This document shows positions 1 to 18,248 of a DNA stretch of 18,248 nucleotides, piece after piece. The position numbers and the translations under genes were made by a program. The stretch covers positions 1 through 18,248 of the IMG/VR virus record IMGVR_UViG_3300045988_132161; one strand, given 5' to 3'. How positions within the stretch are numbered: position 1 is the first letter of the stretch; every line of letters starts with the position of its first letter. The DNA is from a virus. Below the pieces are notes generated by a model. It searched no databases, was not told where the DNA came from, and saw nothing but the letters and a program-made list of their open reading frames with translations.

Positions 1-154
1 TGAGTGGTGGGATCTGTGGGAAATTTTTCCCATAGTATTTTTTTTTATGGTATGTTTTCTTTTTTTTGTTTTTTTGTGTGTGTGGTTGTTGGTGGTTCTG
101 TTGTAGTTTGCTGCTGGTTTTTTTATTTTTTCTGTCTTTTTTTGCGTTTTCCGG

Positions 155-183
155 TTGTGTTGTTTTTTTGTGTGTGGTATAGT
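155..183 (+). promoter_or_regulatory. ITR promoter a: TTGTGT, 17-nt spacer, TGgTATAGT (extended -10), firing inward
   Basis: TTGTGT at 155..160, a 17-nt spacer, TATAGT at 178..183 and TG at 175..176. This is sigma-70/sigma-A-like geometry. Confidence 0.5.
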
Positions 184-275
184 GTAGTTATCAACTTCAA
201 AGAAAGGTTGTGAAATGATTACTGTTTTTTATTTCGTTGTTGGCCATGGGGTTCCTGTGGGGCTTGTCGTTCCGG

Positions 276-304
276 TTGTGTGGTGAGGTTGGTGTGTTGA
301 TAAT
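276..304 (+). promoter_or_regulatory. ITR promoter b (weaker): TTGTGT, 17-nt spacer, GATAAT
   Basis: A second copy of the TTCCGGTTGTGT core (270..281) supplies TTGTGT at 276..281. A 17-nt spacer is followed by GATAAT at 299..304. Confidence 0.3.
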
Positions 305-465
305 GGTTTTCATTGTTGGTGTTCTTGCCGTCTTGCTTGGCTGCGAGCTGTTTTTGATGTGCAGTGATGTTTCGCGGGATGTTGGGGACGTGTTGTTGCT
401 TTGTACTGGTCTTGTTGTGGGTTTGGTTGTTGTTGTTGTGTTCAGTCATTGATGGGAGTGTTGTT

Positions 466-714
466 ATGGCTGGTGTTGATGTGAGGGTTGCCGTGTTTCC
501 GTCCCGGTTTGTGGATGGTGATGTGGAGTTGTGGTATGTGCCTCGGGATCATTGTTATGATTTGAGGTATGTGGTGCGGTTTCGCCCGTTTGGGTGTGGT
601 TCGCGTAGTGAGGTGGCGTCTTGTTTGTATGATGCCGGCGATTATAAGGAGGTTGCGGGTATGATCGTGGATGCTGTGACTATTGCCGTTACGCCTTTGT
701 TGCATAGGAGTTGA
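466..714 (+). CDS. Hypothetical early protein (82 aa); the first 16 codons lie inside the ITR
   Basis: ATG at 466 sits 7 nt after GGGAG (454..458). This is the internal Met of ORF 364..714. The product MAGVDVRVAVFPSRFVDGDVELWYVPRDH... looks like a soluble protein, and its stop abuts the next start (TGAATG). Confidence 0.6.
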   Translation: MAGVDVRVAVFPSRFVDGDVELWYVPRDHCYDLRYVVRFRPFGCGSRSEVASCLYDAGDYKEVAGMIVDAVTIAVTPLLHRS

Positions 715-891
715 ATGATGGTTGAGACGTTTGTCGTGTTGGCGTATGTGCGTCATGAGGACAGGCCTGTTGAGGTTGGTTGTGCGTCGTCGTATGATGG
801 GGCTTCTCGTCTGGTGCGTGAGTGGGCTGTGAGGCCGGCTTGTGTGAAGGATGTGGCTTATTTTAGGATTGAGGGTAGGTTTTATGTCTGA
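715..891 (+). CDS. Hypothetical early protein (58 aa)
   Basis: Hand-translated ORF below the track cutoff: MMVETFVVLAYVRHEDRPVEVGCASSYDGASRLVREWAVRPACVKDVAYFRIEGRFYV. It starts directly after the stop at 712..714, and its stop overlaps the next start (ATGTCTGA). Confidence 0.5.
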   Translation: MMVETFVVLAYVRHEDRPVEVGCASSYDGASRLVREWAVRPACVKDVAYFRIEGRFYV

Positions 892-1408
892 GGGTTTTGT
901 TCGTGGGGATGTGTCTGTCCCTGTGTTTAGGCTTCGTAGTTTTGATGATGCGATCATGGAGTCTCCTCGCGTGGTGAAGGCGGTGAGGGGTCATGTTCGT
1001 GAGTTGAATTTGAAGCGTTTTGATGCTGGTTTTGGTGATTTTGAATCGTGTTGTCGTGCGGTGAATATGCTGTGCGAATTGTGGTCTGGGGCTCGTTCTG
1101 AATGGTTTGGTAGGGCTGTGATCGCCGTTTCGAACATTTGTGCTTCCTTGTCTCCTCATGATGGTTTGCAGGCTGCTTTGTCGCGTACGTATGATGTGGA
1201 GTATTTGGATGGTTCCATTAATGGTCCGAATCTTATTGCGTGGACTGCTGTCTGTCGTGTCAAGGGTGGTTCTGGTTTCGACTGTTGCACGGTTTTCGAC
1301 CATTATGGGGCGAAGTGTTTGATTCTTGCGGTGTCCAAGAGTTTTTGCAGGTTGGATACCATGTGTTATACTGATAGTCAGCTGCAGGCTATTCTTTTAG
1401 GGAGGTAA
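884..1408 (+). CDS. Hypothetical early protein (174 aa, Cys-rich)
   Basis: Internal ATG at 884 of ORF 851..1408, preceded by GAGGGTAGG (871..879). It is coupled to the upstream and downstream genes. I recognise no family. Confidence 0.6.
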   Translation: MSEGFVRGDVSVPVFRLRSFDDAIMESPRVVKAVRGHVRELNLKRFDAGFGDFESCCRAVNMLCELWSGARSEWFGRAVIAVSNICASLSPHDGLQAALSRTYDVEYLDGSINGPNLIAWTAVCRVKGGSGFDCCTVFDHYGAKCLILAVSKSFCRLDTMCYTDSQLQAILLGR

Positions 1409-1728
1409 TGATGGCTAAGGTTAAGTCTGGTATTTTCCGTACTCGCGTGTTTGCCGTGCTTAAGGGTATGGAATTGGTGGATGGCGACTTTACGCAGTCC
1501 GAGCATGTTATTGACGGGCGTCTTAAGGATGCTCGTGCGTACTCGGTTCGTGCGAAGAAGCTGTTTCCGAATTTCATTCCGCGTTCCATCGAGATTTACT
1601 CTCAGAGGGTTACGATGGATGATGAGACGTTTTACAGGCATGCGACTTTCGAGGAACCGCAGAAGTGGAATCCCGAAGAACATACAAAAAAGCAACACGC
1701 CGAAGTTGAAAACAACGACGGCATGTGA
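1408..1728 (+). CDS. Putative histone-like dsDNA-binding protein (phi29 p6-like)
   Basis: 106 aa. GGAGG lies at 1401..1405, so the real start may be the second ATG at 1411. By-eye alignment with phi29 p6 as I recall it shares MAK..I.(K/R)T.V....VDG(E/D)...G.L...A...(R/K)K...V.(V/I)E...V....E.F...AT and an acidic tail. Its position upstream of SSB-TP-DNAP matches phi29 genes 6-5-3-2. Confidence 0.45.
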   Translation: MMAKVKSGIFRTRVFAVLKGMELVDGDFTQSEHVIDGRLKDARAYSVRAKKLFPNFIPRSIEIYSQRVTMDDETFYRHATFEEPQKWNPEEHTKKQHAEVENNDGM

Positions 1729-1734
1729 TATAAA
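1706..1734 (+). promoter_or_regulatory. Promoter P2: TTGAAA, 17-nt spacer, TGaTATAAA (extended -10)
   Basis: TTGAAA at 1706..1711, a 17-nt spacer, TG at 1726..1727 and TATAAA at 1729..1734. It overlaps the stop of the p6-like gene and lies upstream of the SSB gene. Confidence 0.55.
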
Positions 1735-1791
1735 AAGATTTAGGCACAAAGCCTAGAAAACAACAATAACAACGATAATCAAGGGAAGGAT

Positions 1792-2235
1792 ATGATCCTC
1801 ATGGAAAACAACAACACCGCACTCGTCGCATTCAACACCGAGAACACCGAGCTCGGCACCGTCCAGCACTTCATCGACACTTCGACCCGCGAAGGCAAGA
1901 TCAAGCTCTACTCCGCCCTCCAGAATGCCGAAAAGCTGGACGAACACCTCAACGAGCCGCTGGCCATGGTGAACGCCGTCGCACAGGCCGTACAGGTGAC
2001 CGACGATCAGACGGGCGAGGTTTCCAACACCGTGCGCGTCATCATCGTGACCGCCGACAACAAGGCGTACGCCGCCACCTCACCCACTCTGGCAGCCGGA
2101 CTGAACACCATGTTCGGCATCTTCGGAACGCCGAACACGTGGACCGAACCGCTCACCATCAAGGTGATCGAACGTCGCTCCCGCCGCGGTTTCAAGTTCT
2201 TCAGCATCGAACCGGTGGTTGAAGAAGCCAAGTGA
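1792..2235 (+). CDS. Putative single-stranded DNA-binding protein (phage-type SSB)
   Basis: 147 aa, with SD GGGAAGGA upstream. The pattern ...LYSALQNAEKLDEHLNEPL...V.VTDDQTGEV...VRVIIVTADNKAYAATSPTLAAGLNTMFGIFGTPNTW.EPL.IKV.E.RSRRGFKFFSIE resembles lactococcal-phage-type SSBs from memory. Its position corresponds to phi29 gene 5. Confidence 0.45.
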   Translation: MILMENNNTALVAFNTENTELGTVQHFIDTSTREGKIKLYSALQNAEKLDEHLNEPLAMVNAVAQAVQVTDDQTGEVSNTVRVIIVTADNKAYAATSPTLAAGLNTMFGIFGTPNTWTEPLTIKVIERRSRRGFKFFSIEPVVEEAK

Positions 2236-2265
2236 CCTACCGACCGGTAGATAGATCCCATTCAT

Positions 2266-2291
2266 AGAGAGCACCCCTTCGGGTGCTCTCT
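2266..2291 (+). terminator. Hairpin between SSB and TP genes (partial terminator or attenuator candidate)
   Basis: AGAGAGCACCC, loop cttc, GGGTGCTCTCT: an 11-bp perfect stem with a 4-nt loop. It is followed by CCATCTTG, which is a weak U tract. Confidence 0.4.
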
Positions 2292-2315
2292 CCATCTTGA
2301 AGGGGAGTATGCCCT

Positions 2316-3278
2316 ATGTCCCGCAAACAGAAGCACGTCAAGGCACGTCAAGCCGCACAAGCCCGTGCCGCACGCAACATCAAACAGCTCGGCGCCTATT
2401 CGCATGCGAATCTCGCCAAAACCGCCGACAGGCAGCTCGTCAACATCGCCAAAACGCTCGGACAGGAGTGGGATAGGCAGAAGAGGCAGGCCATCGTGGA
2501 AGCGAAAGCCACCCCCTACCATGCCACCGTCGTGCCGAAACCCACGAAACAGGATTACCTGTTCGCCGCGCGTGCCGACATCACGGACGCACGGATCGCA
2601 GCGGAACCGGTGGCGAAGCGGCGCAAACTCCTACGCCAACAACGGCGGAAGATCAATGCGGCACGGCAGCGGATCAACGATTGGAACAAGGCGCAAGCCA
2701 TGCCACCTAAAAGCGTGTACGACCAGCGTATGGACGAACTTTCCGACACTACCGATGAGGGTTTCGGCCGCAATCAGATCATCCCCTCCAAGCTTACCGA
2801 TTTTCTCCAAATGAAGAACGTGCTTGGCGACGAAGCCTTTGTCAGGAGCCAGTTGGAAGGCGGTCATCGTAAGGAACTGTTGAACCAGATGCATGACGCC
2901 GCCGAGATTCTGGGCTTGCGTACCGAACGGGAAGCCGGGACGGGCGGAAAGCCTAAGGCGAAGGCGAAGAAGAGGCAGGACTTGTATGATGAAGGCCGAT
3001 GGCCGTCGTACATGCGTAAGTCGCGTTACGAAATGTTCGAAAAGATTCTGGGCTCGTCGCTCGGATCGAAGCGTCTGAAACGGTTCCGCAAGCTGACGGC
3101 CGCGCAGAAGCGTGCTTTCATCGAATTGACGGATGCGCCTCGCATCGTGTTCGACTGGTCCACGTATGATCCGGTCCGGCACGGTTTCGTTTCGGCTTTG
3201 CGTGAGGATAGCGAAGGCTACTCTCGCTCCCGCAGGAATTTCGACCGTTGGATGGCGGAGGTTGAGGCACTGGCGTAA
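2316..3278 (+). CDS. Putative terminal protein (positional call)
   Basis: 320 aa, SD AAGGGGAG upstream. It ends 28 nt before the DNAP start, matching the phi29 gene 3-2 order. The N-terminus is very basic (MSRKQKHVKARQAAQARAARNIK) and there is an internal KPKAKAKKR. I see no sequence-level match. Confidence 0.5.
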   Translation: MSRKQKHVKARQAAQARAARNIKQLGAYSHANLAKTADRQLVNIAKTLGQEWDRQKRQAIVEAKATPYHATVVPKPTKQDYLFAARADITDARIAAEPVAKRRKLLRQQRRKINAARQRINDWNKAQAMPPKSVYDQRMDELSDTTDEGFGRNQIIPSKLTDFLQMKNVLGDEAFVRSQLEGGHRKELLNQMHDAAEILGLRTEREAGTGGKPKAKAKKRQDLYDEGRWPSYMRKSRYEMFEKILGSSLGSKRLKRFRKLTAAQKRAFIELTDAPRIVFDWSTYDPVRHGFVSALREDSEGYSRSRRNFDRWMAEVEALA

Positions 3279-3305
3279 CGTGTCTCATCGAAGGGAAGTT
3301 ATATC

Positions 3306-4757
3306 ATGACGATGATCAAAAGTAGGGTCGGATTATGGTGTGCCGACGGTGTGATACGGTTTACGGACGGCACGGGATTGCATGATGTCGGCTCCCCCGC
3401 CGCCATGATGGCGGCTGTCATGACCGGAGGCAGGCTTACCGTCTACGTGACCGACCCTGATGTGCTCGATCCTTTCATTGCGCATGTCGTGCATGCGCTC
3501 CCCCATAATGAGCATCGCGCGAACCTGAGCTGGGATGGCATCGTTTCCAAGAAGGGCAGGTTTTTCAGCTTCTGTGTGACCGTCGACCGGGATGATTCGA
3601 TCCGCTTCTTCGACGTTTCGAACCTGCTGCGGGAAAACTGCCGTATCACCATGACGGACAGGCAGTTGTTGGCTGTTCTTGCCGAATATGAGAAGCGTGG
3701 CCTGTGCAGGATCACCGCGGGCGCGGCCAGCATGGAAGCGTTCGTCAGGGGGGATTGGGAATGGTATGATGGCAAATTCCCCCAGCTCGGTTCGGAGGAT
3801 AAAATGTCGTTGCATGGGGCTTATATCGGAGGATTCATGCTGGCCAAGGAAGGACGGTATGGCAAGGCCATTGACGTTGACTGCAATTCCATGTACCCGT
3901 CCATTTTGAAGGATGAATGGCTTCCGTGGGGGCTTCCGGAACCGTATGACGGCGAATATGAGCGGGATGACGACATGCCGTTGCATTGCGACGAAATGAC
4001 GTTCCGTGCGGAATTGAAACCGGACGGGTGTCCTTTCCTGTTGGACAACCGTAGCATGTACGGTTTGAATCGTCTCACTTCGACACGAGGCTATGTCACG
4101 CGTGTCCTGACCGACATCGACCAGAAGCTGCTCGAAGAGAATTATGACGTGACCGTGTACGAACGTGTGCGTGGGTGGAAGTTCCGTAGGAACAAAGGGT
4201 TTTTCCGCTCTTTCGTCGAAGAATGGGGCGCGTTGAAGCAGCGTGGGACGGGGGAGGGAAGGCAGATGGCCAAGCTCATCATGAACGCTCTCGTGGGCAA
4301 GATGGCAAGCCTGCCGAAAGGCGCCGTCATGCTCCCCTCTTCGAAGGATGGCGTCACCGTCGAATGGGATGTCGCCCATCGTGACGGGTCGAATCTGAAG
4401 ACCGATTATCTGCCGGTCCCCATATGGGTGAACGCTTATGCGCGTAGGAAGCTTATGACGGTCTGCCGTGCGAATGCGGATCGGCTCCTGTATGCCAATA
4501 CGGACGGCTGCATACTGTCCGGCTGGGATCCGGTGGCATCATGCGAGATTCATCCGACCGAATTGGGCAAATGGAAGATCGCCGCCAAGTATGATAGGCT
4601 CACCATTCTGGGAGTGAATCGATATCAGGGGTGGCGTTGCGATGGTGGAGTGGATGTCTGCATGGCGGGAAGCGTGTTCGACGAGCCCATCCCCTATGAG
4701 CGGTTCCGGCATGGCGTACAGGTGCGCGACGCCTGCGGTACGATGGTCATGCTATGA
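3306..4757 (+). CDS. Protein-primed family-B DNA polymerase (phi29 gp2-like, short and divergent)
   Basis: 483 aa. Motif A is IDVDCNSMYPS (phi29 FDVNSLYP), motif B is KLIMNALVGKMAS (phi29 KLMLNSLYGKFAS) and motif C is LLYANTDGCIL (phi29 IYCDTDSIHL). RITAGAASMEAF matches phi29 RMTAGSDSLKGF. A TPR2-like insertion, SLPKGAVMLPSSKDGV...PIWVNAYAR, lies between motifs B and C. Confidence 0.9.
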   Translation: MTMIKSRVGLWCADGVIRFTDGTGLHDVGSPAAMMAAVMTGGRLTVYVTDPDVLDPFIAHVVHALPHNEHRANLSWDGIVSKKGRFFSFCVTVDRDDSIRFFDVSNLLRENCRITMTDRQLLAVLAEYEKRGLCRITAGAASMEAFVRGDWEWYDGKFPQLGSEDKMSLHGAYIGGFMLAKEGRYGKAIDVDCNSMYPSILKDEWLPWGLPEPYDGEYERDDDMPLHCDEMTFRAELKPDGCPFLLDNRSMYGLNRLTSTRGYVTRVLTDIDQKLLEENYDVTVYERVRGWKFRRNKGFFRSFVEEWGALKQRGTGEGRQMAKLIMNALVGKMASLPKGAVMLPSSKDGVTVEWDVAHRDGSNLKTDYLPVPIWVNAYARRKLMTVCRANADRLLYANTDGCILSGWDPVASCEIHPTELGKWKIAAKYDRLTILGVNRYQGWRCDGGVDVCMAGSVFDEPIPYERFRHGVQVRDACGTMVML

Positions 4758-4900
4758 TGGGAATCGTTCTTCGAGCATTGATTTTCGGCTGGGAGAGACA
4801 TGGTTCGGACTGCCACGGCTGAGAATGCCGCCGATCATGGTTTGCCGTCGTGGTGACGGCGCCCTACGATTTTCGCCTCATGCTCTTATAGGACGTTTCG

Positions 4901-4930
4901 GGCCCTCCGTGATTGGAGGGCCTTTTGCTT
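4901..4930 (+). terminator. Rho-independent terminator closing the replication operon
   Basis: GGCCCTCC, loop gtgatt, GGAGGGCC: an 8-bp GC-rich stem at 4901..4922, followed by TTTTGCTT. Confidence 0.75.
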
Positions 4931-4939
4931 GCCGTGGCA

Positions 4940-4948
4940 TGATATGAT
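4940..4948 (+). promoter_or_regulatory. Promoter P3 (late): extended -10 TGaTATGAT
   Basis: TG at 4940..4941 and TATGAT at 4943..4948, just downstream of the terminator and 36 nt upstream of the scaffold ATG. There is no convincing -35. Confidence 0.4.
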
Positions 4949-4983
4949 TGGAGAGGAAACATTGCCTATCGTAAGGAGATTGC

Positions 4984-5268
4984 ATGGCAGAACCGACCAC
5001 TGGCGACGAGGATGCTCCCGTCCAGCCGCCGACCGTGGAGGAGAGGGAGACCGAAACCGTCGACGATGAGGTCAAGCCGAACGGGGATTCGGGGCCGGAG
5101 TCGAAGGACGGCGGGCCGGACGTGTCCGCACGACTCGATGCCATCGAGAAGGAGTTGGCCGCATTGAAGGCCATGATGGACACGCTCGGATACACGGACC
5201 CCACTCCGGCCGATGACGGCGATGATGGCGTCGAAGCGCAGCATTCCATCGAAGACCTGTTCGATTAA
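4984..5268 (+). CDS. Scaffolding protein (phi29 gp7-like by size, charge and position)
   Basis: 94 aa and very acidic (D/E-rich), with a helical segment ARLDAIEKELAALKAMMDTL. SD AAGGAG lies upstream and the gene sits immediately before the major capsid gene. Confidence 0.6.
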   Translation: MAEPTTGDEDAPVQPPTVEERETETVDDEVKPNGDSGPESKDGGPDVSARLDAIEKELAALKAMMDTLGYTDPTPADDGDDGVEAQHSIEDLFD

Positions 5269-5290
5269 CCATAGTTAGGAGATATTCACC

Positions 5291-7033
5291 ATGTCTAATA
5301 TTCGACCGTTGGCCGGCAAGGGTGACGTTGAGATTTTCAATGCCGTGCGTGCCGAAACCAGCCCCCAGTTTCAGATGCGCATTCCGTCGGCCACGCAAGG
5401 CAACCTTCGCAGGGCCGTGGATACCATGCGCGGCTTCCCGTACCTGCGCGACGAGTTCACGGGAGTGCTGATCCAGCGTCTCATCGGACTGTACGTCCAG
5501 CATGCGGACTGGGATGATCCGCTCAAGCTTGTCGGCTCCCCACGGACCTTGAAGCGCTATGGCAGCACGTATGAGCAGGCCGCCGTCGGCTTGGTCAAGG
5601 CACGCACCCGCAATTTCAATCAGGAATATCTGGGCGATGACGTCTATGGCCGTTATTCGCTGCCGACCGCAAGCGTCTTCCATCCTCTCACGTTCGACCA
5701 TTACTATCCCGTCACGATCCCGGAGGATGCGCTGCTGACCGCATTCGACGGCGAGTCCGGCATGTCGGAGTACATCGCCGAGATTATGAACGCCCCCATC
5801 CTGTCGGATAGGAACGACATGTATCTCATGAAGACGCAGTGCTTCGCGGAATACGCCCGCAAGGGCGGCTTCTATCGCGTGCACACGCCGGACGTGGGCA
5901 AGGCCGATTCGACCGAAGCCGATGCGAAGGGCCTGTTGCGTCTCATCCAGCAGAAGGCCAACGAGCTGAAGTCCCTTCCGATGAGTGCGATGGGCAGGTA
6001 TAATGCCATGAGCTGGGTGACGCCGTGGCGTGATTCCGAAGCGATCCTCTTCGCCACCCCGCAGGTGATCGCCGCATTGAACGTGGAGGCGTTGGCCGCG
6101 GCGTTCAACATCGATCGGGCCAACGTGCCGTATCGTATCATCCCGATTCCGGAGGACATGTTCGGCATCGGCGGCGCGGCGGGCAAGGTGCAGGCCGTGC
6201 TCACCACCGAAGACTTCTTCTTCTGTTGGGATGAAATGCTCGAAACCACGAATTCGCCGGTCAATCCGATTGACGGCACCCGCAACATCTTCTTCAAGCA
6301 TCGTGGTTCCGTCACTCCGAACCCGTTCGCGAACGCGATCCTGTTCTGGACGGGCGAAGGCTCTTCCGAATCCGTCGTCCTGCCGGACACGCTCACCGTT
6401 TCCAAGCCGAAGTTCGCGTTGCGTGTCAGGAAGTACGGCCAGCCTGCCGTCACCCCGCAGGACGTGTCGCGTGGCGACCTGGTGCAGGTCGAGTCCGTCA
6501 TTTCCAGCGCCAACAAGGATACGGCATCCTTCCAGCCGGTCGGCGTCGAATACGCGTTGGAGGGCGCGACCTCCCAGTTCACTTCGATCGACAATGACGG
6601 CATCCTCAGGTGCGGTTTGGACGAAACCGCCGAAAGCCTCAAGGTCACCGCGCAGGCGACCTATGTCGATCCGGCGACTCCGGAGATTGATCAGGCCGTT
6701 TCCGCCGCGCTCGACGTGCCCGTCGTCGGCACTTGGGTCGGCGGCATCAAGGTCGGCGCACTGTCCGGACTGACCGTTTCCGGCCCCGATGATGTGAAGG
6801 TTTCCGGATCCGTCAAGCTCACCGCCTTGGCTCTCATGGCGGACGGGTCGAAGCGGGATGTGAGCAATCTTGCCGACTGGAATGTCGACGCGAACGCTAC
6901 GGTCGACAAGACGGGCAAGCTGACGGGCGCTGCCGTCGGCGACGCGAAGGTGACCGTCAGGTTCGCCGGAGCGGTCGGCGAAAAGACCGTGAAGGTTTCC
7001 GCCGGCGAAAAGACCGTGAAGGTTTCCGCCTGA
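5291..7033 (+). CDS. Major capsid protein (phi29 gp8-like) with Ig-like (Big_2-type) C-terminal domains
   Basis: 580 aa, SD TAGGAG upstream. [22 protein letters not shown] matches phi29 [38 protein letters not shown] matches phi29 LDVDVLAKAFNMNRTD. The C-terminus [53 protein letters not shown] is a typical Big_2 pattern. Confidence 0.9.
   Translation: [580 protein letters not shown]
6977..7030 (+). repeat. Perfect 27-bp tandem duplication at the 3' end of the capsid gene
   Basis: GGCGAAAAGACCGTGAAGGTTTCCGCC occurs at 6977..7003 and again at 7004..7030. It is in frame and gives [18 protein letters not shown] followed by the stop. Confidence 0.95.
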
Positions 7034-7054
7034 GAAGGTGTCGGAGAGTAGAAT

Positions 7055-7092
7055 GGGCATGGGGGTGACCCTCATGCCCGTTCTTGTTGTTT
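7055..7092 (+). terminator. Rho-independent terminator or attenuator after the capsid gene
   Basis: GGGCATGGGGG, loop tga, CCCTCATGCCC: an 11-bp stem with one G-U pair, followed by GTTCTTGTTGTTT. Confidence 0.65.
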
Positions 7093-7102
7093 AGGAGGTT
7101 TT

Positions 7103-9334
7103 ATGACGGCCAATGATCTGCCCATCAACTTCAGTTACGCGAAATGGACGCCGAACACCCGCTTCAAATTGTGCAATGTCCCTTGGGATATGGGGTATCG
7201 GGATATCGTCACATGGGATAGGCAGCGGCAGGAAGCGTATTTCGACGGGTTGGACGGCATCGAATTCACCGGCTGCACCATGGCGAAATACGGGCTGCCG
7301 GTACGGTTGCCGGTGCCGTTCGCGCAGGCGTCGCGATACAATTATCTCATCGCATCGAACGAGTATGGTTTCGATACTCCTCGCAGCTGGTATTATTTCG
7401 TGCAATCCTGCGATTACGTGAACGCCGGCACCACGCAGTTGAACATCCAATTGGACGTGTGGCAGTCCTTTCAGCATGACGTGACGTTCGGCACCGCCTA
7501 TGTGGAAAGGGGGCATGTCGGCGTCGCCAACGAACGTCAGATGGACGATTACGGTCGTGGAACGCTCGACCTGCCGGAAGGATTGGATGCCGGCAAGACG
7601 CTGATCAACGCGACCACGGCGTACATGCCGCTCGCCACGGTGGAAGACGGGCGTGTGGCCTGCGGTGTGATCATCGTATCCACCACGGACCTTACCGTCG
7701 ATCCGGGGGATCAGACCAATCCGAAGACCACCACCGCAAGCGGGTCCATATTCGAAAACCAGTATAATGGCACGCAATTGATCTATCTTACGTCCGTGGA
7801 CGACTTGCAGACCGTGTTCGCCCTGGGTGCGAACTATCCGTGGGTCACCCAAGGCATTTGCGGCATTTACGCGGTACCGCGGCTGCCTGAAGGCCTGTTG
7901 CGCAATCAGGGGGAGTATGGGAAACTGTTCGGCAAGGAAGTGAAGGGATTGAAAGGCAGGATCGTCCACTTGTATCAGAATACCGTCCACGGCCGGGACC
8001 GGTATTCGGATGTCATGGTCGTGAAGGATTTTCGCGACAACTTCCATATCCCGCAGCGTTACCGGCATTTGAAGAAGCTGCTCACCGCCCCCTACTCCGT
8101 CGTCCAATGCTCCTGCCTGAACGGCACCAGCATCGAATATTCGCCGGAACAGATCCCATCCAAGGATCTGACGATCCGTGAAGCGTGGCAGTATGCGCCG
8201 CCGCAGCCGCGTCTGAATTTCTGGATACCGAATTACGCCGCCCAATATGCGGACCAGTGGTCGCCCCTGCCGGATGACATGGGATTGCCGTTCGATAAGG
8301 GCGACATGTTGGATGCGGCTTTCGGCATCACGAATTTCCCGACGTTCATGGCCGTCAACAATGGCAGCGCCCTCGCATTGGCCAATTCCGCCTATACGCG
8401 ACAGTATGCGCAGAAGTCGGCCGACTGGTCGTATCAGAAAACCATGATGGGCGTCAACAACGCTTACGCGCAATCGCAGATCGGCACGCAGTATGCGGGC
8501 GAAGCGAACCGGCTCGGCGCGTCCAACCGCAATTCCATGAATGCGATCAGCAATCAGGCCGCGCAGATGGCAACGGATCTGACGTTGAAGAACCTCGGGT
8601 TTTCGAACCAGATGGCGCAGCTCAATACGATCGGATCCGGCGCTCTCGGAGCCGTCGGCTCCCTTGCGACGGGCAATGTCGGCGGTGCGGCCGGAGCCGT
8701 GGCGGGAGCTGCGATCGGCGCTTGGACGAACCAGCAGACCTACAATAACGACGTAAGTTCGGCCAACCAGCAGTTGGCGAACACCCAAGCCACCAACAAC
8801 GCTTCGACGTCGCAGGCCAATGCCTATTCGCTCGCGCAGACCAACCTGTCCAACCAGCAGACCATGCAGTTCGCCGACATGAACCGCCGGCTGGCGCAGG
8901 CCACCGCGCAAGGCGACTATGCGAACACGATCGCCGGCATCAACGCGCAAGTGCAGCAGACGCAGACCACGCCGCCGACCACGTCCGGCGCGTTGGGCGG
9001 CGACGCGTTCAACCTGGCCAACGGCATTGTCGGCGTATGCGTGAAATTCCGCCGCCTGTCCGACGCGGCCCTTAATACGATCGGCGAATTCTGGCTGAGA
9101 TACGGATACTACGTCCAACGGTTCATGCGCATGCCGGCCGGTCTCATGGCCATGAGCAATTTCACGTATTGGAAGGTTCACGAACTGTATTTGAGCAGTT
9201 CGACATGTCCTGAAGAGTTCCGGCTGACCATCAAAGGCATTTTCGAAAGCGGCGTGACGGTGTGGACGGATCCTGACAGGATCGGCGTCACCGACTATGC
9301 GGACAATGAGCCGCTGGCGGGCATCTCATACTGA
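7103..9334 (+). CDS. Tail knob / distal tail tube protein (phi29 gp9-like)
   Basis: 743 aa, SD AGGAGG upstream. SRYNYLIASNEYGFDTPRSWYYFVQSCDYVNAGTTQLNIQLDVWQSFQHDVTFGTAYVERGHV matches phi29 [60 protein letters not shown]. The C-terminus FWLRYGYYVQR...IKGIFESGVTVWTD matches phi29 FFHKYGYKINR...IRTIFDNGITLWHTD. Confidence 0.9.
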   Translation: MTANDLPINFSYAKWTPNTRFKLCNVPWDMGYRDIVTWDRQRQEAYFDGLDGIEFTGCTMAKYGLPVRLPVPFAQASRYNYLIASNEYGFDTPRSWYYFVQSCDYVNAGTTQLNIQLDVWQSFQHDVTFGTAYVERGHVGVANERQMDDYGRGTLDLPEGLDAGKTLINATTAYMPLATVEDGRVACGVIIVSTTDLTVDPGDQTNPKTTTASGSIFENQYNGTQLIYLTSVDDLQTVFALGANYPWVTQGICGIYAVPRLPEGLLRNQGEYGKLFGKEVKGLKGRIVHLYQNTVHGRDRYSDVMVVKDFRDNFHIPQRYRHLKKLLTAPYSVVQCSCLNGTSIEYSPEQIPSKDLTIREAWQYAPPQPRLNFWIPNYAAQYADQWSPLPDDMGLPFDKGDMLDAAFGITNFPTFMAVNNGSALALANSAYTRQYAQKSADWSYQKTMMGVNNAYAQSQIGTQYAGEANRLGASNRNSMNAISNQAAQMATDLTLKNLGFSNQMAQLNTIGSGALGAVGSLATGNVGGAAGAVAGAAIGAWTNQQTYNNDVSSANQQLANTQATNNASTSQANAYSLAQTNLSNQQTMQFADMNRRLAQATAQGDYANTIAGINAQVQQTQTTPPTTSGALGGDAFNLANGIVGVCVKFRRLSDAALNTIGEFWLRYGYYVQRFMRMPAGLMAMSNFTYWKVHELYLSSSTCPEEFRLTIKGIFESGVTVWTDPDRIGVTDYADNEPLAGISY

Positions 9335-9336
9335 CC

Positions 9337-9389
9337 TGTATAATGGGAGGAGCAATGAACACTCCTCCCATGATGTTAGGACGGTAATC
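9337..9389 (+). promoter_or_regulatory. Leader of the portal gene: consensus -10 TATAAT, SD-sequestering hairpin and a 10-codon uORF
   Basis: TATAAT at 9339..9344. GGGAGGAG (9345..9352) pairs with CTCCTCCC (9362..9369), leaving the uORF ATG (9355) in the loop. The uORF at 9355..9387 encodes MNTPPMMLGR, and its TAA ends 2 nt before the portal GTG. Confidence 0.45.
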
Positions 9390-11140: not shown

Positions 11141-11174
11141 GCTATACTTGGATGTAGGACAGATTGGAGGACTT

Positions 11175-11696
11175 ATGGATGGGATCAATCGACGCCCAAC
11201 CCCTGTGGACATCGATCCGCGGCAACGGTATTTCACTACCGTGCAGCCATTCAGCTATCGTGATACGCTGACGGCGCTCGGATACATTCAGGAGGTCGCC
11301 TCGCATGTCGACGAACTCAGGGAGCAGCTTGGCAATCTCGCCAAGGATGAGCATGCGGACATCGAAGCGATCAATGGGATTCTCGCGCGGATCGAAACGT
11401 GGCAGGATGCCGTCGACGGCACGTTGGATGATCTGACGGCGAAACTGGACCAATATCAGGCGTCGGCGTTGACGTACGATCCGACCACGGGCCGGTACGG
11501 GGATTCGAAGACCACGGATCGTAACATGTATCGGGAGCTCGCCGTGTTCGGGGCACGCGTGGACCAGATGGCGTCCATGACGGCCGCCGAAGCCGCGAAC
11601 CATGATTGCATCACGTGGGCGGTCTTGGGCAATCGGGAGATTTTCGGCGATGACGAGCCGCGGGTGACGCCGCGGGAAAGGACGGGACGGCGGTGA
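11175..11696 (+). CDS. Hypothetical structural protein (173 aa, coiled-coil-like)
   Basis: In-frame ATG at 11175 follows GGAGGA (11166..11171). The track start at 11148 is a TTG. The gene lies between the collar and fibre genes. I recognise no family. Confidence 0.55.
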   Translation: MDGINRRPTPVDIDPRQRYFTTVQPFSYRDTLTALGYIQEVASHVDELREQLGNLAKDEHADIEAINGILARIETWQDAVDGTLDDLTAKLDQYQASALTYDPTTGRYGDSKTTDRNMYRELAVFGARVDQMASMTAAEAANHDCITWAVLGNREIFGDDEPRVTPRERTGRR

Positions 11697-13750: not shown

Positions 13751-13772
13751 ATCCTATTCGGAGAGTGGTACG

Positions 13773-15029: not shown

Positions 15030-15040
15030 TCGTAGGAGTG

Positions 15041-15049
15041 TGTTATACT
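15041..15049 (+). promoter_or_regulatory. Promoter P4: extended -10 TGtTATACT
   Basis: TG at 15041..15042 and TATACT at 15044..15049, 12 nt after the lysin stop. The format matches the ITR, P2 and P3 elements. There is no clear -35. Confidence 0.4.
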
Positions 15050-15053
15050 ATAA

Positions 15054-15140
15054 GTGTCGGCATACAAGCATCTGCGAACAACTTCCCTTGGCCGACACGG
15101 GGTGTGACGGTGGTCATGACGTCACACCCCTTTCCCTTAT
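15054..15140 (+). ncRNA. Candidate ~80-nt structured RNA or leader (two hairpins ending in a terminator) upstream of the packaging ATPase
   Basis: Hairpin A pairs GTGTCGGC (15054..15061) with GCCGACAC (15091..15098), extended by CAAG (15065..15068) with CTTG (15087..15090). Hairpin B pairs GGGGTGTGACG (15099..15109) with CGTCACACCCC (15120..15130) and is followed by TTTCCCTTAT. The TSS predicted from P4 is about 15055..15058. Confidence 0.3.
15099..15140 (+). terminator. Rho-independent terminator between the lysin and ATPase genes
   Basis: An 11-bp perfect GC-rich stem with a 10-nt loop, followed by TTTCCCTTAT. Confidence 0.6.
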
Positions 15141-15157
15141 ATGGAGGTGACGTCGAA

Positions 15158-16225
15158 ATGGCATTGCGGACATTGGCTGAAAACGACTATTACGACCTCC
15201 ACAACCTCCTCACCCGTAACGCGCCATGGAACTTCATCATCGGAGCGCGAGGCCTCGGCAAAACCTTCGCCGCGAAACGATACGGCATCAAGGAGTACCT
15301 CAAACACGGGCACGAATTCATCTACCTGCGCCGCACCGACGTGGAACAGAAACGCAAGGAAACCTTCTTCAAAGACATTCAAAGCTTCTTCCCCGACTAC
15401 ACGTTCCGCATCAACGGCGACAAAGGCCAATTGCACAACGACTCGTGGGAAGACAAGGACTGGCGCACATGCTGCCATTTCATCGCCCTCTCCCAAGCCG
15501 GCGGCCTCAAATCAGTCGCCTACCCCAAAGTCCATCTCATCATCTTCGACGAAATATTCCCCGACAACCTACGATTCCTCAGCAATGAAGTCAACTCGTT
15601 CTCCGAATTCTTCAACACCGTGGACAGGTGGCAGGATAGGACGAAAGTATTGTTCCTATCCAACGCCGTACAGCAAGCCAACCCCTACTTCGCGAAATAC
15701 CATCTGGACATCGGCACGCAGCAAGCCAACCATCAGCAATACAGGCTCTACTGCAGCGGCTTCATCTGCCTCGAACTGGCGGATTACGGCGGATTCTCAG
15801 CCAAAGTAGCCAAATCCAGATTCGGCAGGTTCCTGGAACGATACGATGGCGACTATGCGGATTACGCCATTCGAAACAAGTTCCGGGACGAATCCGACAA
15901 GCTCATAGCGGCAATCCCCCCGGACGGTGAACTGTCATACGTTCTGGACACCGCCGACTACGGTCGCTTCGGCATTTGGATGACGATATCCGAAAAGGAC
16001 GGGCACGTGTCACGATACGTGTCACGACGGATACCCAAAGACAACACCCGCCCCACCTACACGCTCAACCCCAACCACGTCGACGAAAAAACATGGTACG
16101 TCAAAAAATCCGACGACGTGGTACGACGACTCACCACCGGATACCGGCTCGGCAAAATCAGATTCGAAAACACCCAAGTCAAAGCGGACTTCGCCCTCAT
16201 CATCGGCAACCTGCTAGGAGCATAG
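15158..16225 (+). CDS. DNA packaging (encapsidation) ATPase, phi29 gp16-like
   Basis: 355 aa. ATG at 15158 lies 10 nt after GGAGG (15143..15147). WNFIIGARGLGKTFAAKRYGIKEYLKHGHEFIYLRR matches phi29 LNFVIGARGIGKSYAMKVYPINRFIKYGEQFIYVRR (Walker A). HLIIFDEIF matches STIVFDEFI (Walker B). FLSNAVQQANPYF matches CLSNAVSVVNPYF. RFGRFL and GKIRFEN match RFGRLI and GYLRFDN. Confidence 0.95.
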   Translation: MALRTLAENDYYDLHNLLTRNAPWNFIIGARGLGKTFAAKRYGIKEYLKHGHEFIYLRRTDVEQKRKETFFKDIQSFFPDYTFRINGDKGQLHNDSWEDKDWRTCCHFIALSQAGGLKSVAYPKVHLIIFDEIFPDNLRFLSNEVNSFSEFFNTVDRWQDRTKVLFLSNAVQQANPYFAKYHLDIGTQQANHQQYRLYCSGFICLELADYGGFSAKVAKSRFGRFLERYDGDYADYAIRNKFRDESDKLIAAIPPDGELSYVLDTADYGRFGIWMTISEKDGHVSRYVSRRIPKDNTRPTYTLNPNHVDEKTWYVKKSDDVVRRLTTGYRLGKIRFENTQVKADFALIIGNLLGA

Positions 16226-16240
16226 AAAGGAAACCCGACA

Positions 16241-16606
16241 ATGACGCAAACGGACATATGGAGCGCCATCGCAATACTGTTCTTCATCACCACGGACTAC
16301 ATCACCGGAGTGATCAAAGCCAGCATGCAAGGCAACCTCAGCTCCAAAAAAATGCGGGAAGGCTTAGGCCACAAGCTCGCCTACCTCGCACTATCAGTCA
16401 CCGCATGGTTCATAGACATGCTGAACACGCACCTCCCCCTCGGCTTCCCCCTCGACATATCCACCTGCGTCATCAGCGGCATCTGCCTCATCGAACTCAC
16501 CTCCATCCTCGAAAACCTCACAGCCATCAACCCGGAACTCAACGACGCCCCATTCATGAACATCTTCGCACAACACGACACCCAGCCAAAACACAAGGAA
16601 AGCTGA
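16241..16606 (+). CDS. Holin (Phage_holin_4_1 / LL-H, TcdE-type)
   Basis: 121 aa. It has the pattern DYITGVIKA...LSSKKMREGLGHKLAYLALSV.....ID...LIELTSILENL and predicted transmembrane segments. It lies immediately upstream of the endolysin. Confidence 0.85.
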   Translation: MTQTDIWSAIAILFFITTDYITGVIKASMQGNLSSKKMREGLGHKLAYLALSVTAWFIDMLNTHLPLGFPLDISTCVISGICLIELTSILENLTAINPELNDAPFMNIFAQHDTQPKHKES

Positions 16607-16609
16607 CCA

Positions 16610-17479
16610 ATGGACGACATCACATGGATAGGCTCACCAAACCACTACAACGGGCGAAACGGCTACACCATCACCCACATCACACTCCACATCATGGTAG
16701 GCCACCTCACCGGAACCGACAACGTCTTCAACCAGCCCACGACACAGGCAAGCGCACACTACGGCATCGGAGCGGACGGCACCATACACCAATACGTCAA
16801 CGAAACGGACGGCAGCTACAGCGACGCCAACTACGCATCCAACAATTCAACCATCAGCATCGAACACGAAGGAGGAAAAGCCGGCATACCATGCACCCAA
16901 GCATGCATGGACGCCAGCGCCCGACTCTGCGCCGACATAGCACGACGACACGGTTGGACACACCTATGGCATGACGGGCTCAACGGCAACATATGGCTCC
17001 ATCGAGAAATACCCGGAACAGACCACTACGGATGCCCCGACAACACCATCAACAGCCTCAACGTACCCTACATCATCAACAAAGCAAACCAACTACTGGC
17101 AACAGGAGACACTATGACAGCAGAAGACGTATGGAACTTCAACCAAAACGGCGTGAAAATGCGCGACCGCATACAAGGCACCGACACGGCCGCAAACAGC
17201 GCCAAAACCGAACTCTTCCGACTATCCACATGGGACAACGACACCCACGCATCCCCACTAGGAAACCTCGTCATCGAACAGCCAATCCAACAAGGAGCCA
17301 AACTCGGCGACCGAATAGCCGGCATCGACGACAAAACCAGCCAACTCATCACCCAAATAGCCGCACTCACCACAGCAGTCAAAACACTCGCCGAACGCAT
17401 AGGAGCCAACCCCGACACCACCACACCAACCACACACAACCAGACCAAGCCAAACCCGACAACCACCACAACACAGTGA
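16610..17479 (+). CDS. Endolysin: N-acetylmuramoyl-L-alanine amidase (Amidase_2 / PGRP fold) with an uncharacterised C-terminal region
   Basis: 289 aa, SD AAGGAAAG upstream. It carries ITLHIMVGH, SAHYGIGADGTIHQYVNE, NNSTISIEHEG and LHREIPGTDHYGCPDN (T7-lysozyme-type Zn ligands His, His, Cys). The C-terminal ~130 aa is coiled-coil-like and ends in a Thr/Pro-rich tail. Confidence 0.85.
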   Translation: MDDITWIGSPNHYNGRNGYTITHITLHIMVGHLTGTDNVFNQPTTQASAHYGIGADGTIHQYVNETDGSYSDANYASNNSTISIEHEGGKAGIPCTQACMDASARLCADIARRHGWTHLWHDGLNGNIWLHREIPGTDHYGCPDNTINSLNVPYIINKANQLLATGDTMTAEDVWNFNQNGVKMRDRIQGTDTAANSAKTELFRLSTWDNDTHASPLGNLVIEQPIQQGAKLGDRIAGIDDKTSQLITQIAALTTAVKTLAERIGANPDTTTPTTHNQTKPNPTTTTTQ

Positions 17480-17504
17480 CAATCCACCGGCAGCAAGCCA
17501 CAAC

Positions 17505-17536
17505 AAAGCCCCTAGGCCAACAAACCTAGGGGCTTT
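17505..17536. terminator. Bidirectional terminator hairpin at the inner edge of the right end
   Basis: AAAGCCCCTAGG, loop ccaacaaa, CCTAGGGGCTTT: a 12-bp stem. On the - strand it is followed by GTTGTGGCTTGC (with the stem's own TTT reading TTTGTTGTGG). On the + strand only the stem-terminal TTT is available. Confidence 0.6.
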
Positions 17537-17543
17537 CCCATAC

Positions 17544-17569
17544 CAACACCAACCACCAACACCAACCAC
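17544..17569. repeat. Tandem 13-bp direct repeat, two copies of CAACACCAACCAC
   Basis: The copies occupy 17544..17556 and 17557..17569 and are identical. Confidence 0.9.
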
Positions 17570-17591
17570 CACACAGCCTCACCAGCAAGCC

Positions 17592-17783
17592 TCACAAGCC
17601 ACACAAACCGCCTCTCCTAGCCCCAACACAACAGCCAAGCCTACCAACCAGCCAAGCCACAAAACACGTCCCACACGCCACCACACAGCCCCACACAGCA
17701 AGCCACACCACACAACCGGAACGACAGGCCGCCGCCACAAACCGGGACGGAAACACGGCAACCCTCACATCAACACCAGCCAT
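17592..17783 (-). CDS. Possible right-end leftward ORF (63 aa, hydrophobic) using the ITR-borne SD and ATG
   Basis: The mirror of the 466 ATG is at 17783..17781. The first 16 aa are identical to the left-end protein, followed by the unique AAACRSGCVVWLAVWGCVVACGTCFVAWLVGRLGCCVGARRGGLCGL. The ORF is bracketed by the ITR promoter and the 17505..17536 terminator. However, G+T-rich DNA yields such V/G/C/W-rich ORFs by chance. Confidence 0.25.
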   Translation of the reverse strand: MAGVDVRVAVFPSRFVAAACRSGCVVWLAVWGCVVACGTCFVAWLVGRLGCCVGARRGGLCGL

Positions 17784-18248
17784 AACAACACTCCCATCAA
17801 TGACTGAACACAACAACAACAACCAAACCCACAACAAGACCAGTACAAAGCAACAACACGTCCCCAACATCCCGCGAAACATCACTGCACATCAAAAACA
17901 GCTCGCAGCCAAGCAAGACGGCAAGAACACCAACAATGAAAACCATTATCAACACACCAACCTCACCACACAACCGGAACGACAAGCCCCACAGGAACCC
18001 CATGGCCAACAACGAAATAAAAAACAGTAATCATTTCACAACCTTTCTTTGAAGTTGATAACTACACTATACCACACACAAAAAAACAACACAACCGGAA
18101 AACGCAAAAAAAGACAGAAAAAATAAAAAAACCAGCAGCAAACTACAACAGAACCACCAACAACCACACACACAAAAAAACAAAAAAAAGAAAACATACC
18201 ATAAAAAAAAATACTATGGGAAAAATTTCCCACAGATCCCACCACTCA
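17735..18248. repeat. Right inverted terminal repeat (514 bp)
   Basis: Mirror copy of 1..514; see the left ITR entry. Confidence 0.95.
18066..18094 (-). promoter_or_regulatory. Mirror copy of ITR promoter a, firing leftward into the right end
   Basis: Reverse complement of 155..183. ACTATA at 18066..18071 is TATAGT on the - strand. Confidence 0.45.

Follow-up and report, generated by a model that had tools for sequence, protein, structure and literature searches.

Why does the top strand of a small linear phage genome carry an extreme excess of G+T at its left end, and why does this excess flip abruptly to A+C within the left arm? The question is raised by IMG/VR virus record IMGVR_UViG_3300045988_132161, positions 1 to 18,248 of which were analyzed (the whole stretch, hereafter the window). 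The window is the complete linear genome, 18,248 bp long, of a phi29-like podophage infecting Bifidobacterium. An earlier sequence-only reading had described a flip at ~1670 and had considered deamination of a displaced 5' strand, a recently inverted or imported block with the genes for the single-stranded DNA-binding protein (SSB) and the terminal protein (TP), and a skew that tracks transcription units. It had missed the right arm (15158-18248), which mirrors the left arm, and this mirror image is the key to reading the skew. We find that skew polarity follows the genome end, not transcription, and we argue that deamination of the 5'-ended strand is on balance the probable cause.

Strand composition along the genome

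Over positions 1-1000, GC skew is ~ +0.5 and AT skew ~ -0.6, and in sliding windows both signs reverse between 1500 and 1950. By block, the G+T fraction is 0.80 at 1-514, 0.69 at 515-1670, 0.39 at 1671-2800, 0.55 at 2801-5000, 0.49 at 5001-15030, 0.33 at 15158-17734 and 0.20 at 17735-18248. The sequence-only reading had proposed a comparison of block boundaries with shuffled controls, and the boundaries do stand out, with change-point statistics of 464 and 345, whereas 50 block shuffles reached 41 at most. Its four hand counts are exact (481-540, G26 T22 C7 A5, 80% G+T; 1801-1860, A21 C22 G11 T6, 72% A+C; 2701-2760, A17 C17 G15 T11; 8401-8460, A19 C14 G17 T10). The blocks, steps and genes of the two arms are listed below.

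1..514, plus strand: left inverted terminal repeat (ITR); top strand 80% G+T, GC 42%; includes a terminal hairpin (14-35) and a small hydrophobic open reading frame (ORF; 303-452)
466..1670, plus strand: left G+T block; early accessory genes g1 (466-714), g2 (715-891), g3 (884-1408) and most of g4 (1411-1728)
1670..1791, plus strand: left step; g4 C-terminal tail, promoter-like element, hairpin 1741-1755, A-rich leader and SSB ribosome-binding site (RBS)
1792..2235, plus strand: phi29-type SSB gene (PF17427); core of the A+C island
2316..3278, plus strand: putative TP gene, named by position only; first half (to ~2800) A+C-rich, second half mildly G+T-rich
2800..5000, plus strand: weak residual G+T zone; TP C-terminal half and DNA polymerase (DNAP) gene (3306-4757), ending at the terminator 4900-4923
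15030..15157, plus strand: right step; extended -10 box, two hairpins, T tract and ATPase RBS
15158..17479, plus strand: genes of the right A+C block; packaging ATPase (15158-16225), holin (16241-16606) and endolysin (16610-17479)
17480..17734, strand not assigned: unique stretch of the right arm; hairpin 17507-17534 between convergent units and most of g1' (17592-17783, minus strand); top strand 18% G+T
17735..18248, minus strand: right ITR; top strand 20% G+T; repeats the ITR ORF and the first 49 nt of g1 in mirror orientation

If amino-acid composition alone explained the skew, the skew would be expected to vanish at synonymous sites, as the sequence-only reading pointed out; instead, it is strongest there (z up to +11 and -15). 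At fourfold degenerate sites, the G+T fraction is 0.85 in g1, 0.93 in g2, 0.89 in g3 and 0.80 in g4, and none of the 191 fourfold sites up to position 1650 is an A. The fraction is 0.32 in SSB, 0.52 in TP as a whole (0.41 in its first half) and 0.54 in DNAP; core genes range from 0.44 to 0.62 (most 0.44-0.54, with one small gene at 0.62). In the right arm it is 0.25 for the ATPase, 0.17 for the holin and 0.08 for the endolysin, and T is nearly missing there. The skew is also present outside genes, with a G+T fraction of 0.80 in the non-coding left ITR and 0.18 in the non-coding part of the right arm.

As a synonymous control, the amino-acid sequence of each segment was kept and codons were drawn from core usage. 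Relative to this control, G+T is shifted by +0.10 to +0.15 in the left block (z +5.9 to +11.3) and by -0.10 to -0.14 in the right block (z -8.4 to -14.7), and the shift is ~0 in the major capsid protein gene (MCP; z -0.3) and in g16 (z -0.2). Negative shifts were obtained for SSB (-0.063, z -4.6) and the first half of TP (-0.052, z -4.1), and small positive ones for the second half of TP (+0.029) and for DNAP (+0.016; both z ~ +2.2). The earlier description of opposite synonymous choices on one strand stands in direction, SSB and the first half of TP being A+C-shifted on the plus strand, but the shift is less than half of the arm effect and is due in part to amino-acid composition (rich in A, K, Q, N and T).

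The left transition is as abrupt as had been described. Third-position G+T holds a plateau of 0.8-1.0 until ~1650 and is down to 0.2 by ~1675, so that the switch spans less than 50 nt and falls within the last 25 codons of g4. Recovery is slow, to ~0.6 by 2900 and ~0.5 by 5000; across the residual zone (2800-5000), third-position G+T declines from 0.57-0.73 to ~0.5 and fourfold C/(C+T) is 0.57-0.70, compared with 0.83 in the core. On the right, third-position G+T steps from ~0.6 to 0.2 at 15030-15157 and reaches 0-0.1 near the genome end.

Skew polarity and gene orientation

Skew imposed by transcription is expected to take its sign from the direction of transcription, consistently across units. 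In the window, however, co-directional units have opposite signs and convergent units have one sign. Fourfold G+T in plus-strand genes is 0.80-0.93 on the left versus 0.08-0.25 on the right, and the plus-strand endolysin gene, the adjoining non-coding stretch and the minus-strand g1' share one top-strand composition, with no break at hairpin 17507-17534. The large genes of the two arms share one direction of transcription, so an effect tied to the coding strand cannot account for both arms. All large genes are on the plus strand; the earlier statement that every gene lies on one strand fails for the small inward-reading genes at the right end (17592-17946), the only ones that the minus strand holds. 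The suggestion that the skew tracks transcription units holds for its limits, since both steps lie at conserved promoter or hairpin elements, but not for its sign, which ignores the direction of transcription.

Antisense read-through from the right ITR promoter was considered as the cause of the right block and rejected, as a 10-bp hairpin parts the convergent units and the skew runs unbroken across it. No antisense promoters were predicted in the window.

Nature of the compositional change

The differences between arms and core are purely transitional: C/T and A/G ratios alter, and the purine fraction does not. At fourfold sites, the purine fraction is constant (0.34-0.48 everywhere), C/(C+T) is 0.19 on the left, 0.83 in the core and 0.97 in the endolysin gene, and G/(G+A) is 1.00, 0.83 and 0.13, respectively. 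Two-fold codons give the same pattern of transition ratios. This pattern is the deamination signature, C>T plus A>G on the 5'-ended strand, with odds shifts of ~7-fold to >30-fold.

Codon positions 1 and 2 are shifted in the same way as synonymous sites, and so is protein composition. V, F, C and R are over-represented in left-arm proteins, whereas N, Q and T are scarce (left arm versus core: V, 12.3% vs 6.6%; C, 3.8% vs 1.1%; N, 1.5% vs 5.0%; Q, 1.3% vs 4.1%). Such drag on codon positions 1 and 2 and on protein composition is typical of mutation pressure. Low-complexity protein segments also result from the skew: the end of the endolysin gene (17401-17479) encodes a T/P/N/Q/H-rich tail (…NPDTTTPTTHNQTKPNPTTTTTQ) in A+C-only codons, and the ITR ORF (303-452) encodes a hydrophobic 49-mer rich in V, L, G, F and C from G+T codons. 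Low-complexity ORFs such as the latter may be compositional artefacts rather than genes.

Derived transitions in the window were counted with the family consensus (at least 80%) taken as the ancestral state. Derived C>T and G>A changes numbered 12:1 in g3, 19:9 in DNAP, 21:8 in MCP, 5:0 in the portal gene, 0:4 in g12 and 3:12 in the ATPase gene. At ATPase third positions, T>C and A>G changes numbered 12:3, and SSB showed almost no derived changes and no direction among them. The trend matches a genome-wide, end-referenced polarity that switches near the centre and is greatly amplified at the termini, with the qualification that counts are small and that non-synonymous sites are constrained, the counts there being confounded by which amino-acid changes are tolerated.

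Genome identity and gene map

A perfect ITR of 514 bp extends to both ends of the window (1-514 and 17735-18248). The nearest phages are Bifidobacterium dentium phages BD811P1-3 (82-84% identity across >90% of the length), followed by B. pseudocatenulatum phage BP1 (77% identity to the window). Small early genes are succeeded by SSB, the TP-position gene (320 amino acids) and a family B DNAP, then by capsid, tail, portal and tail-associated lysin genes, the packaging ATPase and holin genes, and last the endolysin gene, which is the order of a phi29-like podophage. The linear form with ITRs, together with a family B DNAP of the protein-primed type, a phi29-type SSB and a gp16-type ATPase in conserved order, assigns the genome to this group. 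The names ATPase, portal and MCP rest on annotations and synteny, and those of ATPase, holin and endolysin come from the BD811P and BP1 annotations. The DNAP is 26-31% identical to those of phi29, Nf, B103, Av-1 and other phages (E down to 1e-39).

The SSB assignment of the sequence-only reading is backed by matches to PF17427 (E = 4e-17) and phrog_6243 (E = 1e-19). Its TP assignment agrees with synteny, since the gene at 2316-3278 sits between SSB and DNAP as in Av-1 and Cp-1, but the product has no family match in Pfam or PHROG and no similarity to the Av-1 TP. The label p6-like for g4 is unsupported, as is that of DNA methyltransferase, carried by its BP1 homologue (locus L002, 16324-16638): the 105-amino-acid protein has no Pfam or PHROG match and no similarity to phi29 p6. 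Searches of g1-g4, the ITR ORF and g1' against Pfam and PHROG gave zero matches, and thereby identified no uracil-DNA glycosylase inhibitor or deaminase; homologues of the early genes at 466-1728 are annotated in BD811P2 and BD811P3. Rfam yielded no RNA family anywhere in the window, packaging RNA (pRNA) included.

The inner edge of the ITR (514) cuts an ORF, so that g1 (466-714, plus) and g1' (17592-17783, minus) share their first 49 nt and therefore the same start. Their common N-terminal 16 residues are MAGVDVRVAVFPSRFV, beyond which divergence is complete. Presumably, these inward-reading early genes have a common promoter and RBS. Within the ITR there is a 9-bp hairpin at 14-35 (CTGTGGGAAA TTTT TCCCATAG), 13 nt from each terminus, and a T-rich/GTGTGTG direct repeat (61-82 and 155-176), the second copy of which lies directly upstream of a TATAGT box at ~178-183; hairpin and repeat have their mirror images in the right ITR. 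Hairpin, repeat and box are possible origin and early-promoter elements.

Skew in the Bifidobacterium phage family

IMG/VR scans returned 160 loci of the Bifidobacterium phage family, and 69 genomes were re-joined from left and right loci. The G+T fraction is 0.56-0.77 in the first 1200 nt and 0.33-0.47 in the last 1200 nt of nearly all re-joined relatives and of all those reaching genome ends. Left and right skew amplitudes co-vary among the re-joined relatives (rho = -0.45), with the reservation that a few left/right pairs are possibly chimeric and that cross-genome correlations are not phylogenetically corrected. Skew amplitude showed no significant correlation with ITR length, which is 99-522 bp among relatives whose ITRs start at contig ends.

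Family medians of fourfold G+T descend from the left end (g1 0.70, g2 0.63, g3 0.62, g4 0.54, SSB 0.41, TP 0.47, DNAP 0.45) through the core (0.40-0.48) to the right end (ATPase 0.40, holin 0.30, endolysin 0.26). The family thus has a smoother gradient than the window, yet an end-confined one, and the window, BD811P1-3 and loci L085 and L068/L159 are amplified versions of it. L068/L159 (contig 3300015180_000007) has extreme arms (fourfold G+T 0.77-0.88 in left genes and 0.12-0.25 in right genes), and its entire core is also A+C-rich (0.24-0.38), so that the switch at SSB persists over the rest of the genome. This A+C-rich core may mean that the two ends are used unequally or that the coding-strand bias is stronger.

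When relatives are aligned on the SSB start, the left boundary is sharp: all 68 have a G+T fraction of 0.36-0.38 in the 150 nt upstream of SSB (SD ~0.02). Alignment on the contig end blurs the transition (SD 0.06-0.09), arm length being 1.5-3.5 kb. The left boundary therefore tracks the SSB gene, lying ~150 nt upstream of it at any arm length, and not distance from the end.

Skew in other protein-primed phages

In the Actinomyces phage Av-1, third-position G+T on the left is 0.84 in SSB and 0.71 in TP. On the right (0.21-0.42) it drops abruptly at the ATPase gene (0.59, then 0.37, 0.27 and 0.21), and the first of the inward-reading minus-strand genes has 0.31. Av-1 thus resembles the window in the sharp A+C onset at the packaging ATPase gene and in its end-referenced polarity, which Voltaire, RHph_N3_8, Swim, BadAztec1 and Curie also share, although the effect is weaker in all of these phages. 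Its SSB and TP genes are G+T-rich like the rest of its left arm, whereas the SSB gene of the window is A+C-rich, and an SSB island of opposite sign is specific to the Bifidobacterium phage family, plus phage Swim.

Reversed terminal genes occur in Voltaire (Glutamicibacter) and RHph_N3_8, whose left-end genes are on the minus strand. Top-strand third-position G+T is nevertheless 0.72-0.79 there in Voltaire and, in RHph_N3_8, 0.68-0.80 in the three outermost genes and 0.51-0.66 in three further ones; the outermost right-end genes of both phages have 0.18-0.38. The same end polarity with oppositely oriented terminal genes ties the skew to the genome end and not to transcription. BadAztec1, Curie and Squall share this polarity weakly. 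The carriers seen are phages of actinobacterial hosts and one labelled as infecting Rhizobium, an apparent restriction.

Regulatory elements at the two steps

Both skew steps lie at conserved regulatory elements. At the left step, the promoter P2 proposed in the sequence-only reading (1706-1734) is plausible and strongly conserved: TTGAAA at 1706-1711 is followed by a 17-nt spacer, TG at 1726-1727 and TATAAA at 1729-1734 (TGaTATAAA, 1726-1734), overlapping the g4 stop codon, and 16 diverse relatives show no variation in the -35 box and hardly any in the -10 region. Downstream lies hairpin 1741-1755, whose pairing is kept through compensatory changes, and next to it the A-rich leader. By score, this hairpin is an intrinsic terminator on the minus strand (1755-1741; TAGGCTTTGTGCCTA + AATCTTTTTA), placed exactly where the A+C island begins on its left side; the leftward promoter that such a terminator would imply was not found.

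In 14 relatives, the extended -10 box of the right step (TGtTATACT, 15041-15049) is conserved. It is followed by a first hairpin (15054-15061/15091-15098) and a second (15099-15109/15120-15130, loop GTGGTCATGA), 7 of whose 11 pairs show compensatory changes among 10 relatives, and then by a T tract (15131-15142) and the ATPase RBS. The element as a whole (15041-15142) may terminate the late structural operon, act as a regulatory 5' leader or resemble a packaging RNA. Elsewhere in the window, strong intrinsic terminator-like hairpins on the plus strand, at 4900-4923 (after DNAP) and at 7050-7084 (after the capsid gene, with a 16-bp stem), bound further transcription units, and no skew step is seen at either.

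The SSB-TP island

SSB codons have a fourfold G+T of 0.32, a C/(C+T) of 0.88-0.93 and a two-fold C/(C+T) of 0.93, compared with 0.62 in the core. SSB and the N-terminal half of TP are A+C-rich in 75 of 75 relatives, whatever the arm length. Fourfold divergence between the window and BD811P2 is lowest in SSB (0.15, compared with 0.26-0.49), as is the family median (0.35, compared with 0.42-0.52 in other genes), and this low divergence indicates that the synonymous sites of SSB are constrained. The preference of SSB for A+C-rich, C-ending codons is long established in the family and maintained by synonymous-site selection, with amino-acid composition contributing in SSB as well as in the basic N-terminal half of TP. 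That translational selection alone made the island was considered and rejected: low synonymous divergence favours it, but the lack of a similar C-ending bias in MCP and the shift of SSB toward A at purine-ending sites weaken it.

Explanations for the arm skew

On balance, the arm skew is probably the product of deamination of the 5'-ended strand, which would be single-stranded in protein-primed strand-displacement replication; we infer that single-strandedness during replication is the most likely cause. The sequence-only reading had proposed this for the left end, and the proposal gains from the mirror-image right end, the restriction to transitions, the presence of the skew in non-coding DNA and in genes of both orientations, and its recurrence in ~70 relatives and in Av-1, Voltaire and RHph_N3_8. 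Polarity reversal between the genome halves, presence at synonymous and non-coding sites, independence of orientation and a transitional nature are what strand asymmetry of this kind entails, and all four were found. In every lineage showing the skew, moreover, G+T is on the 5'-ended strand and never the reverse, which deamination predicts and selection for an unstructured strand does not.

Under deamination of the displaced strand, the terminal 1.7 kb on the left and 3.1 kb on the right would be driven to G+T on the strand carrying the nearby 5' end by a strand-asymmetric surplus of C-to-T and A-to-G transitions. Their source would be hydrolytic deamination of the strand displaced by the polymerase that starts at the adjacent terminus. 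The pressure would hit all sites, most strongly synonymous and non-coding ones, and would leave a much weaker imprint of the same polarity toward the middle of the genome, with a change of sign near the centre. The flip at ~1670 would then mark the place where the terminal block meets the conserved promoter, the leader and the SSB gene, and not a change in replication polarity. Sharp edges might arise, hypothetically, if forks paused at occupied promoter or terminator elements, which would lengthen the exposure of the displaced terminal strand and give a plateau. In vitro, phi29 DNA polymerase is stalled by R-loops and by transcripts to which RNA polymerase is bound (PMC10783495).

Several observations weigh against deamination during replication as a full account. 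The sequence-only reading was correct that a replication gradient should be smooth, and the step-like profile is the main unexplained point: in place of a linear decay from end to centre, there are a plateau, steps at ~1670 and ~15100 and an island at 1670-2800. The strong effect is limited to 9% (left) and 17% (right) of the genome, with almost none beyond ~3-5 kb, and DNAP, at 3.3-4.7 kb, retains ~10% of the arm effect. Across ~70 genomes, and without phylogenetic correction, the fourfold composition of SSB correlates inversely with that of the left arm (rho = -0.49) and positively with those of the right arm (+0.48) and the core (+0.40); SSB behaves as if it had right-arm polarity scaling with skew amplitude, which plain codon selection does not predict, and MCP has no C-ending bias comparable to that of SSB. 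Parsimony polarization among BD811P1, BD811P2, BD811P3 and the window suffers from the more skewed window serving as outgroup, since parallel changes at saturated, biased sites then look like reverse changes; the clean comparison of BD811P1 and BD811P3 has few events, which are ~1.6-2-fold in the predicted directions and not significant. Composition by itself cannot tell mutation bias from selection on nucleotide content, and protein priming and strand-displacement intermediates are, for this phage, predictions from its genome sequence.

Other phages belong on the same side of the balance. Phi29, Cp-1 and Clostridium phage CI55P1 have no end-referenced skew (G+T in the first and last 1000 nt: phi29, 0.46 and 0.58; Cp-1, 0.45 and 0.55). 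Phi29 and Cp-1 are like the window in the order of SSB, TP, family B DNAP, MCP, tail, portal, gp16-type ATPase, holin and lysin genes, in having ITRs and in their inward-reading early genes at the right end; phi29 differs in its 6-bp ITR, compared with 514 bp, and in a left operon that reads leftward. Since phi29 is the archetype of this replication mode and yet lacks the skew, the replication mode alone is insufficient. In the Arthrobacter phage Swim, left-arm skew peaks beside a divergent promoter, not at the terminus, and SSB has a G+T of 0.27. Both divergent units there (locus L171, 1140-2349) have A+C-rich coding strands, with third-position values of 0.12-0.27 at the promoter that decay with distance. 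The end-referenced model does not explain this promoter-centred pattern, which is reminiscent of the SSB island.

Exposure of the same strand could also arise if 3'-to-5' resection of unprotected 3' ends, or repeated abortive initiation, left the TP-capped 5'-ended strand single-stranded until fill-in, with deamination acting within the range of resection. The polarity, the transition signature and the independence of orientation would all be accounted for, and confinement to the terminal 1.7-3.1 kb would come naturally; however, such a process predicts monotonic decay rather than a plateau with a step at conserved promoters, and it does not account for the weak central switch in polarity, so we regard it as unlikely, though deserving of some weight. 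Selection on the skew itself could act by removing self-complementarity, which would keep displaced strands and ITRs free of structure, improve ITR pairing or eliminate palindromic restriction sites. Predicted self-structure is indeed low in the arms (-62 and -95 kcal/mol per kb, compared with -202 in the core), and steps at functional boundaries are easier to derive from selection than from a kinetic gradient. Yet the real arm sequences fold at least as well as their dinucleotide shuffles, and in the left arm structure exceeds that of the shuffles (z = -5.1); the arms are structure-poor only through their composition, and nothing beyond composition appears to be selected. Selection would further permit either polarity and favour A+C, whereas the 5'-ended strand is G+T-rich in every affected lineage; the untouched purine fraction points to a transition-specific process, and the skew drags the protein composition of accessory genes. 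We judge selection to be distinctly improbable as the cause.

Transcription-associated asymmetry would make the blocks transcription units, shaped by deamination or repair that differs between template and non-template strands, perhaps with antisense read-through from ITR promoters. The location of both steps at conserved promoter- or terminator-like elements, the minus-strand terminator-like hairpin (1755-1741) at the left edge of the A+C island and the A+C-rich coding strands of the divergent Swim operons, strongest near the promoter, speak for it. But co-directional plus-strand units have opposite compositions, convergent right-arm units are unbroken, the search for antisense promoters in the window gave none, and the coding strands of left early genes are G+T-rich in the window and Av-1 but A+C-rich in Voltaire and RHph_N3_8. 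No single sign fits, a single-sign model failing either in the window genome or in Voltaire, RHph_N3_8 and Swim, and we find transcription a very doubtful cause. Least credible, and close to negligible in our estimation, is that the SSB-TP block is a recent inversion or import that retains the composition of a leftward, phi29-style left operon. The homologous phi29 genes are transcribed leftward and the block is A+C-rich at synonymous sites, as such an origin would have it, but the arrangement and composition recur in all 75 relatives and the boundary is tied to the SSB promoter at any arm length. The limits of the block are not those of genes or modules: it stops mid-TP, and the C-terminal half of TP and DNAP are weakly opposite. 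SSB shows no net drift or decay toward G+T, the local equilibrium. Family fourfold divergence of 35-52% is near saturation, so composition has had time to equilibrate and a relic would have decayed. Av-1, Cp-1 and other actinobacterial relatives also have SSB, TP and polymerase genes in rightward order.

A further version of the favoured explanation, deamination of the displaced strand, would treat the terminal blocks as a programmed replication state in actinobacterial phi29-like phages, with long fork pauses at ~1706-1755 and 15041-15130, kilobase-long 5'-ended flaps and deamination of C and A within them. We consider this speculative and quite improbable. If true, it would mean localized hypermutation of the terminal accessory genes with the core spared, by deamination that is spontaneous or due to a host or phage single-stranded DNA (ssDNA) deaminase, and the scaling of the SSB island with skew amplitude would be a second footprint of that process.

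Comparison with known strand asymmetries

Replication-linked strand asymmetry is already known from mitochondria, bacteria and adenoviruses. In vertebrate mitochondrial DNA (mtDNA), replication proceeds by strand displacement, and deamination of the displaced H strand gives C>T and A>G changes. Large fourfold GC and AT skews of comparable magnitude to those of the window, and a dragged protein composition, are found there (reviews include PMC3269012 and PMC4182315). The mtDNA skew is graded with single-stranded time along one replicon, whereas the window has two mirror-image terminal blocks with plateaus, steps and an island of opposite sign, and its A is depleted even more fully than its C, unlike in mtDNA.

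Adenoviruses, which replicate by strand displacement from two ends, are like the window in having linear genomes with ITRs and terminal-protein priming at both ends, and Grigoriev is said to have linked their skew, in 1999, to replication from the termini. The effect in adenoviruses is modest and is confounded by genes on both strands, unlike the fourfold values of 0.93 and 0.08 among co-directional genes here. Strand-specific codon bias in adenovirus is on record (Das et al. 2006, as cited in PMC3308326). Leading/lagging GC skew in bacteria likewise reverses with reference to replication and gives a G+T excess on the more exposed strand. Bacterial skews, however, are typically an order of magnitude smaller, cover whole replichores and stem from discontinuous synthesis of the lagging strand, a mode foreign to protein-primed phages. 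No prior description of end skew in phi29-like phages was found in the literature outside subscription journals, and a recent review of the group mentions none.

Significance

Strand-compositional asymmetry is usually weak, and the contributions of replication and transcription are hard to part as genes tend to co-orient with forks. The present genome offers a clean natural experiment, since its large genes are co-directional, its ends have opposite skews of mitochondrial magnitude, and the polarity is kept in relatives with reversed terminal genes. Fourfold G+T values of 0.93 and 0.08 within one 18-kb genome, cleanly separated from transcription, are unusual, as are the end-confined, step-like shape bounded by conserved elements, the SSB island of opposite sign and the apparent host restriction.

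By implication, the terminal accessory genes in a group of gut and actinobacterial phages are under a strand-specific transition pressure so high that it reshapes the proteins they encode. This bears on the phylogenetics of these genes, on homology searches with them and on host prediction from codon usage. The end-confined, step-like form of the skew, together with its lack in phi29 and Cp-1, suggests that actinobacterial protein-primed phages differ from Firmicute ones in their replication intermediates or in how ssDNA is protected.

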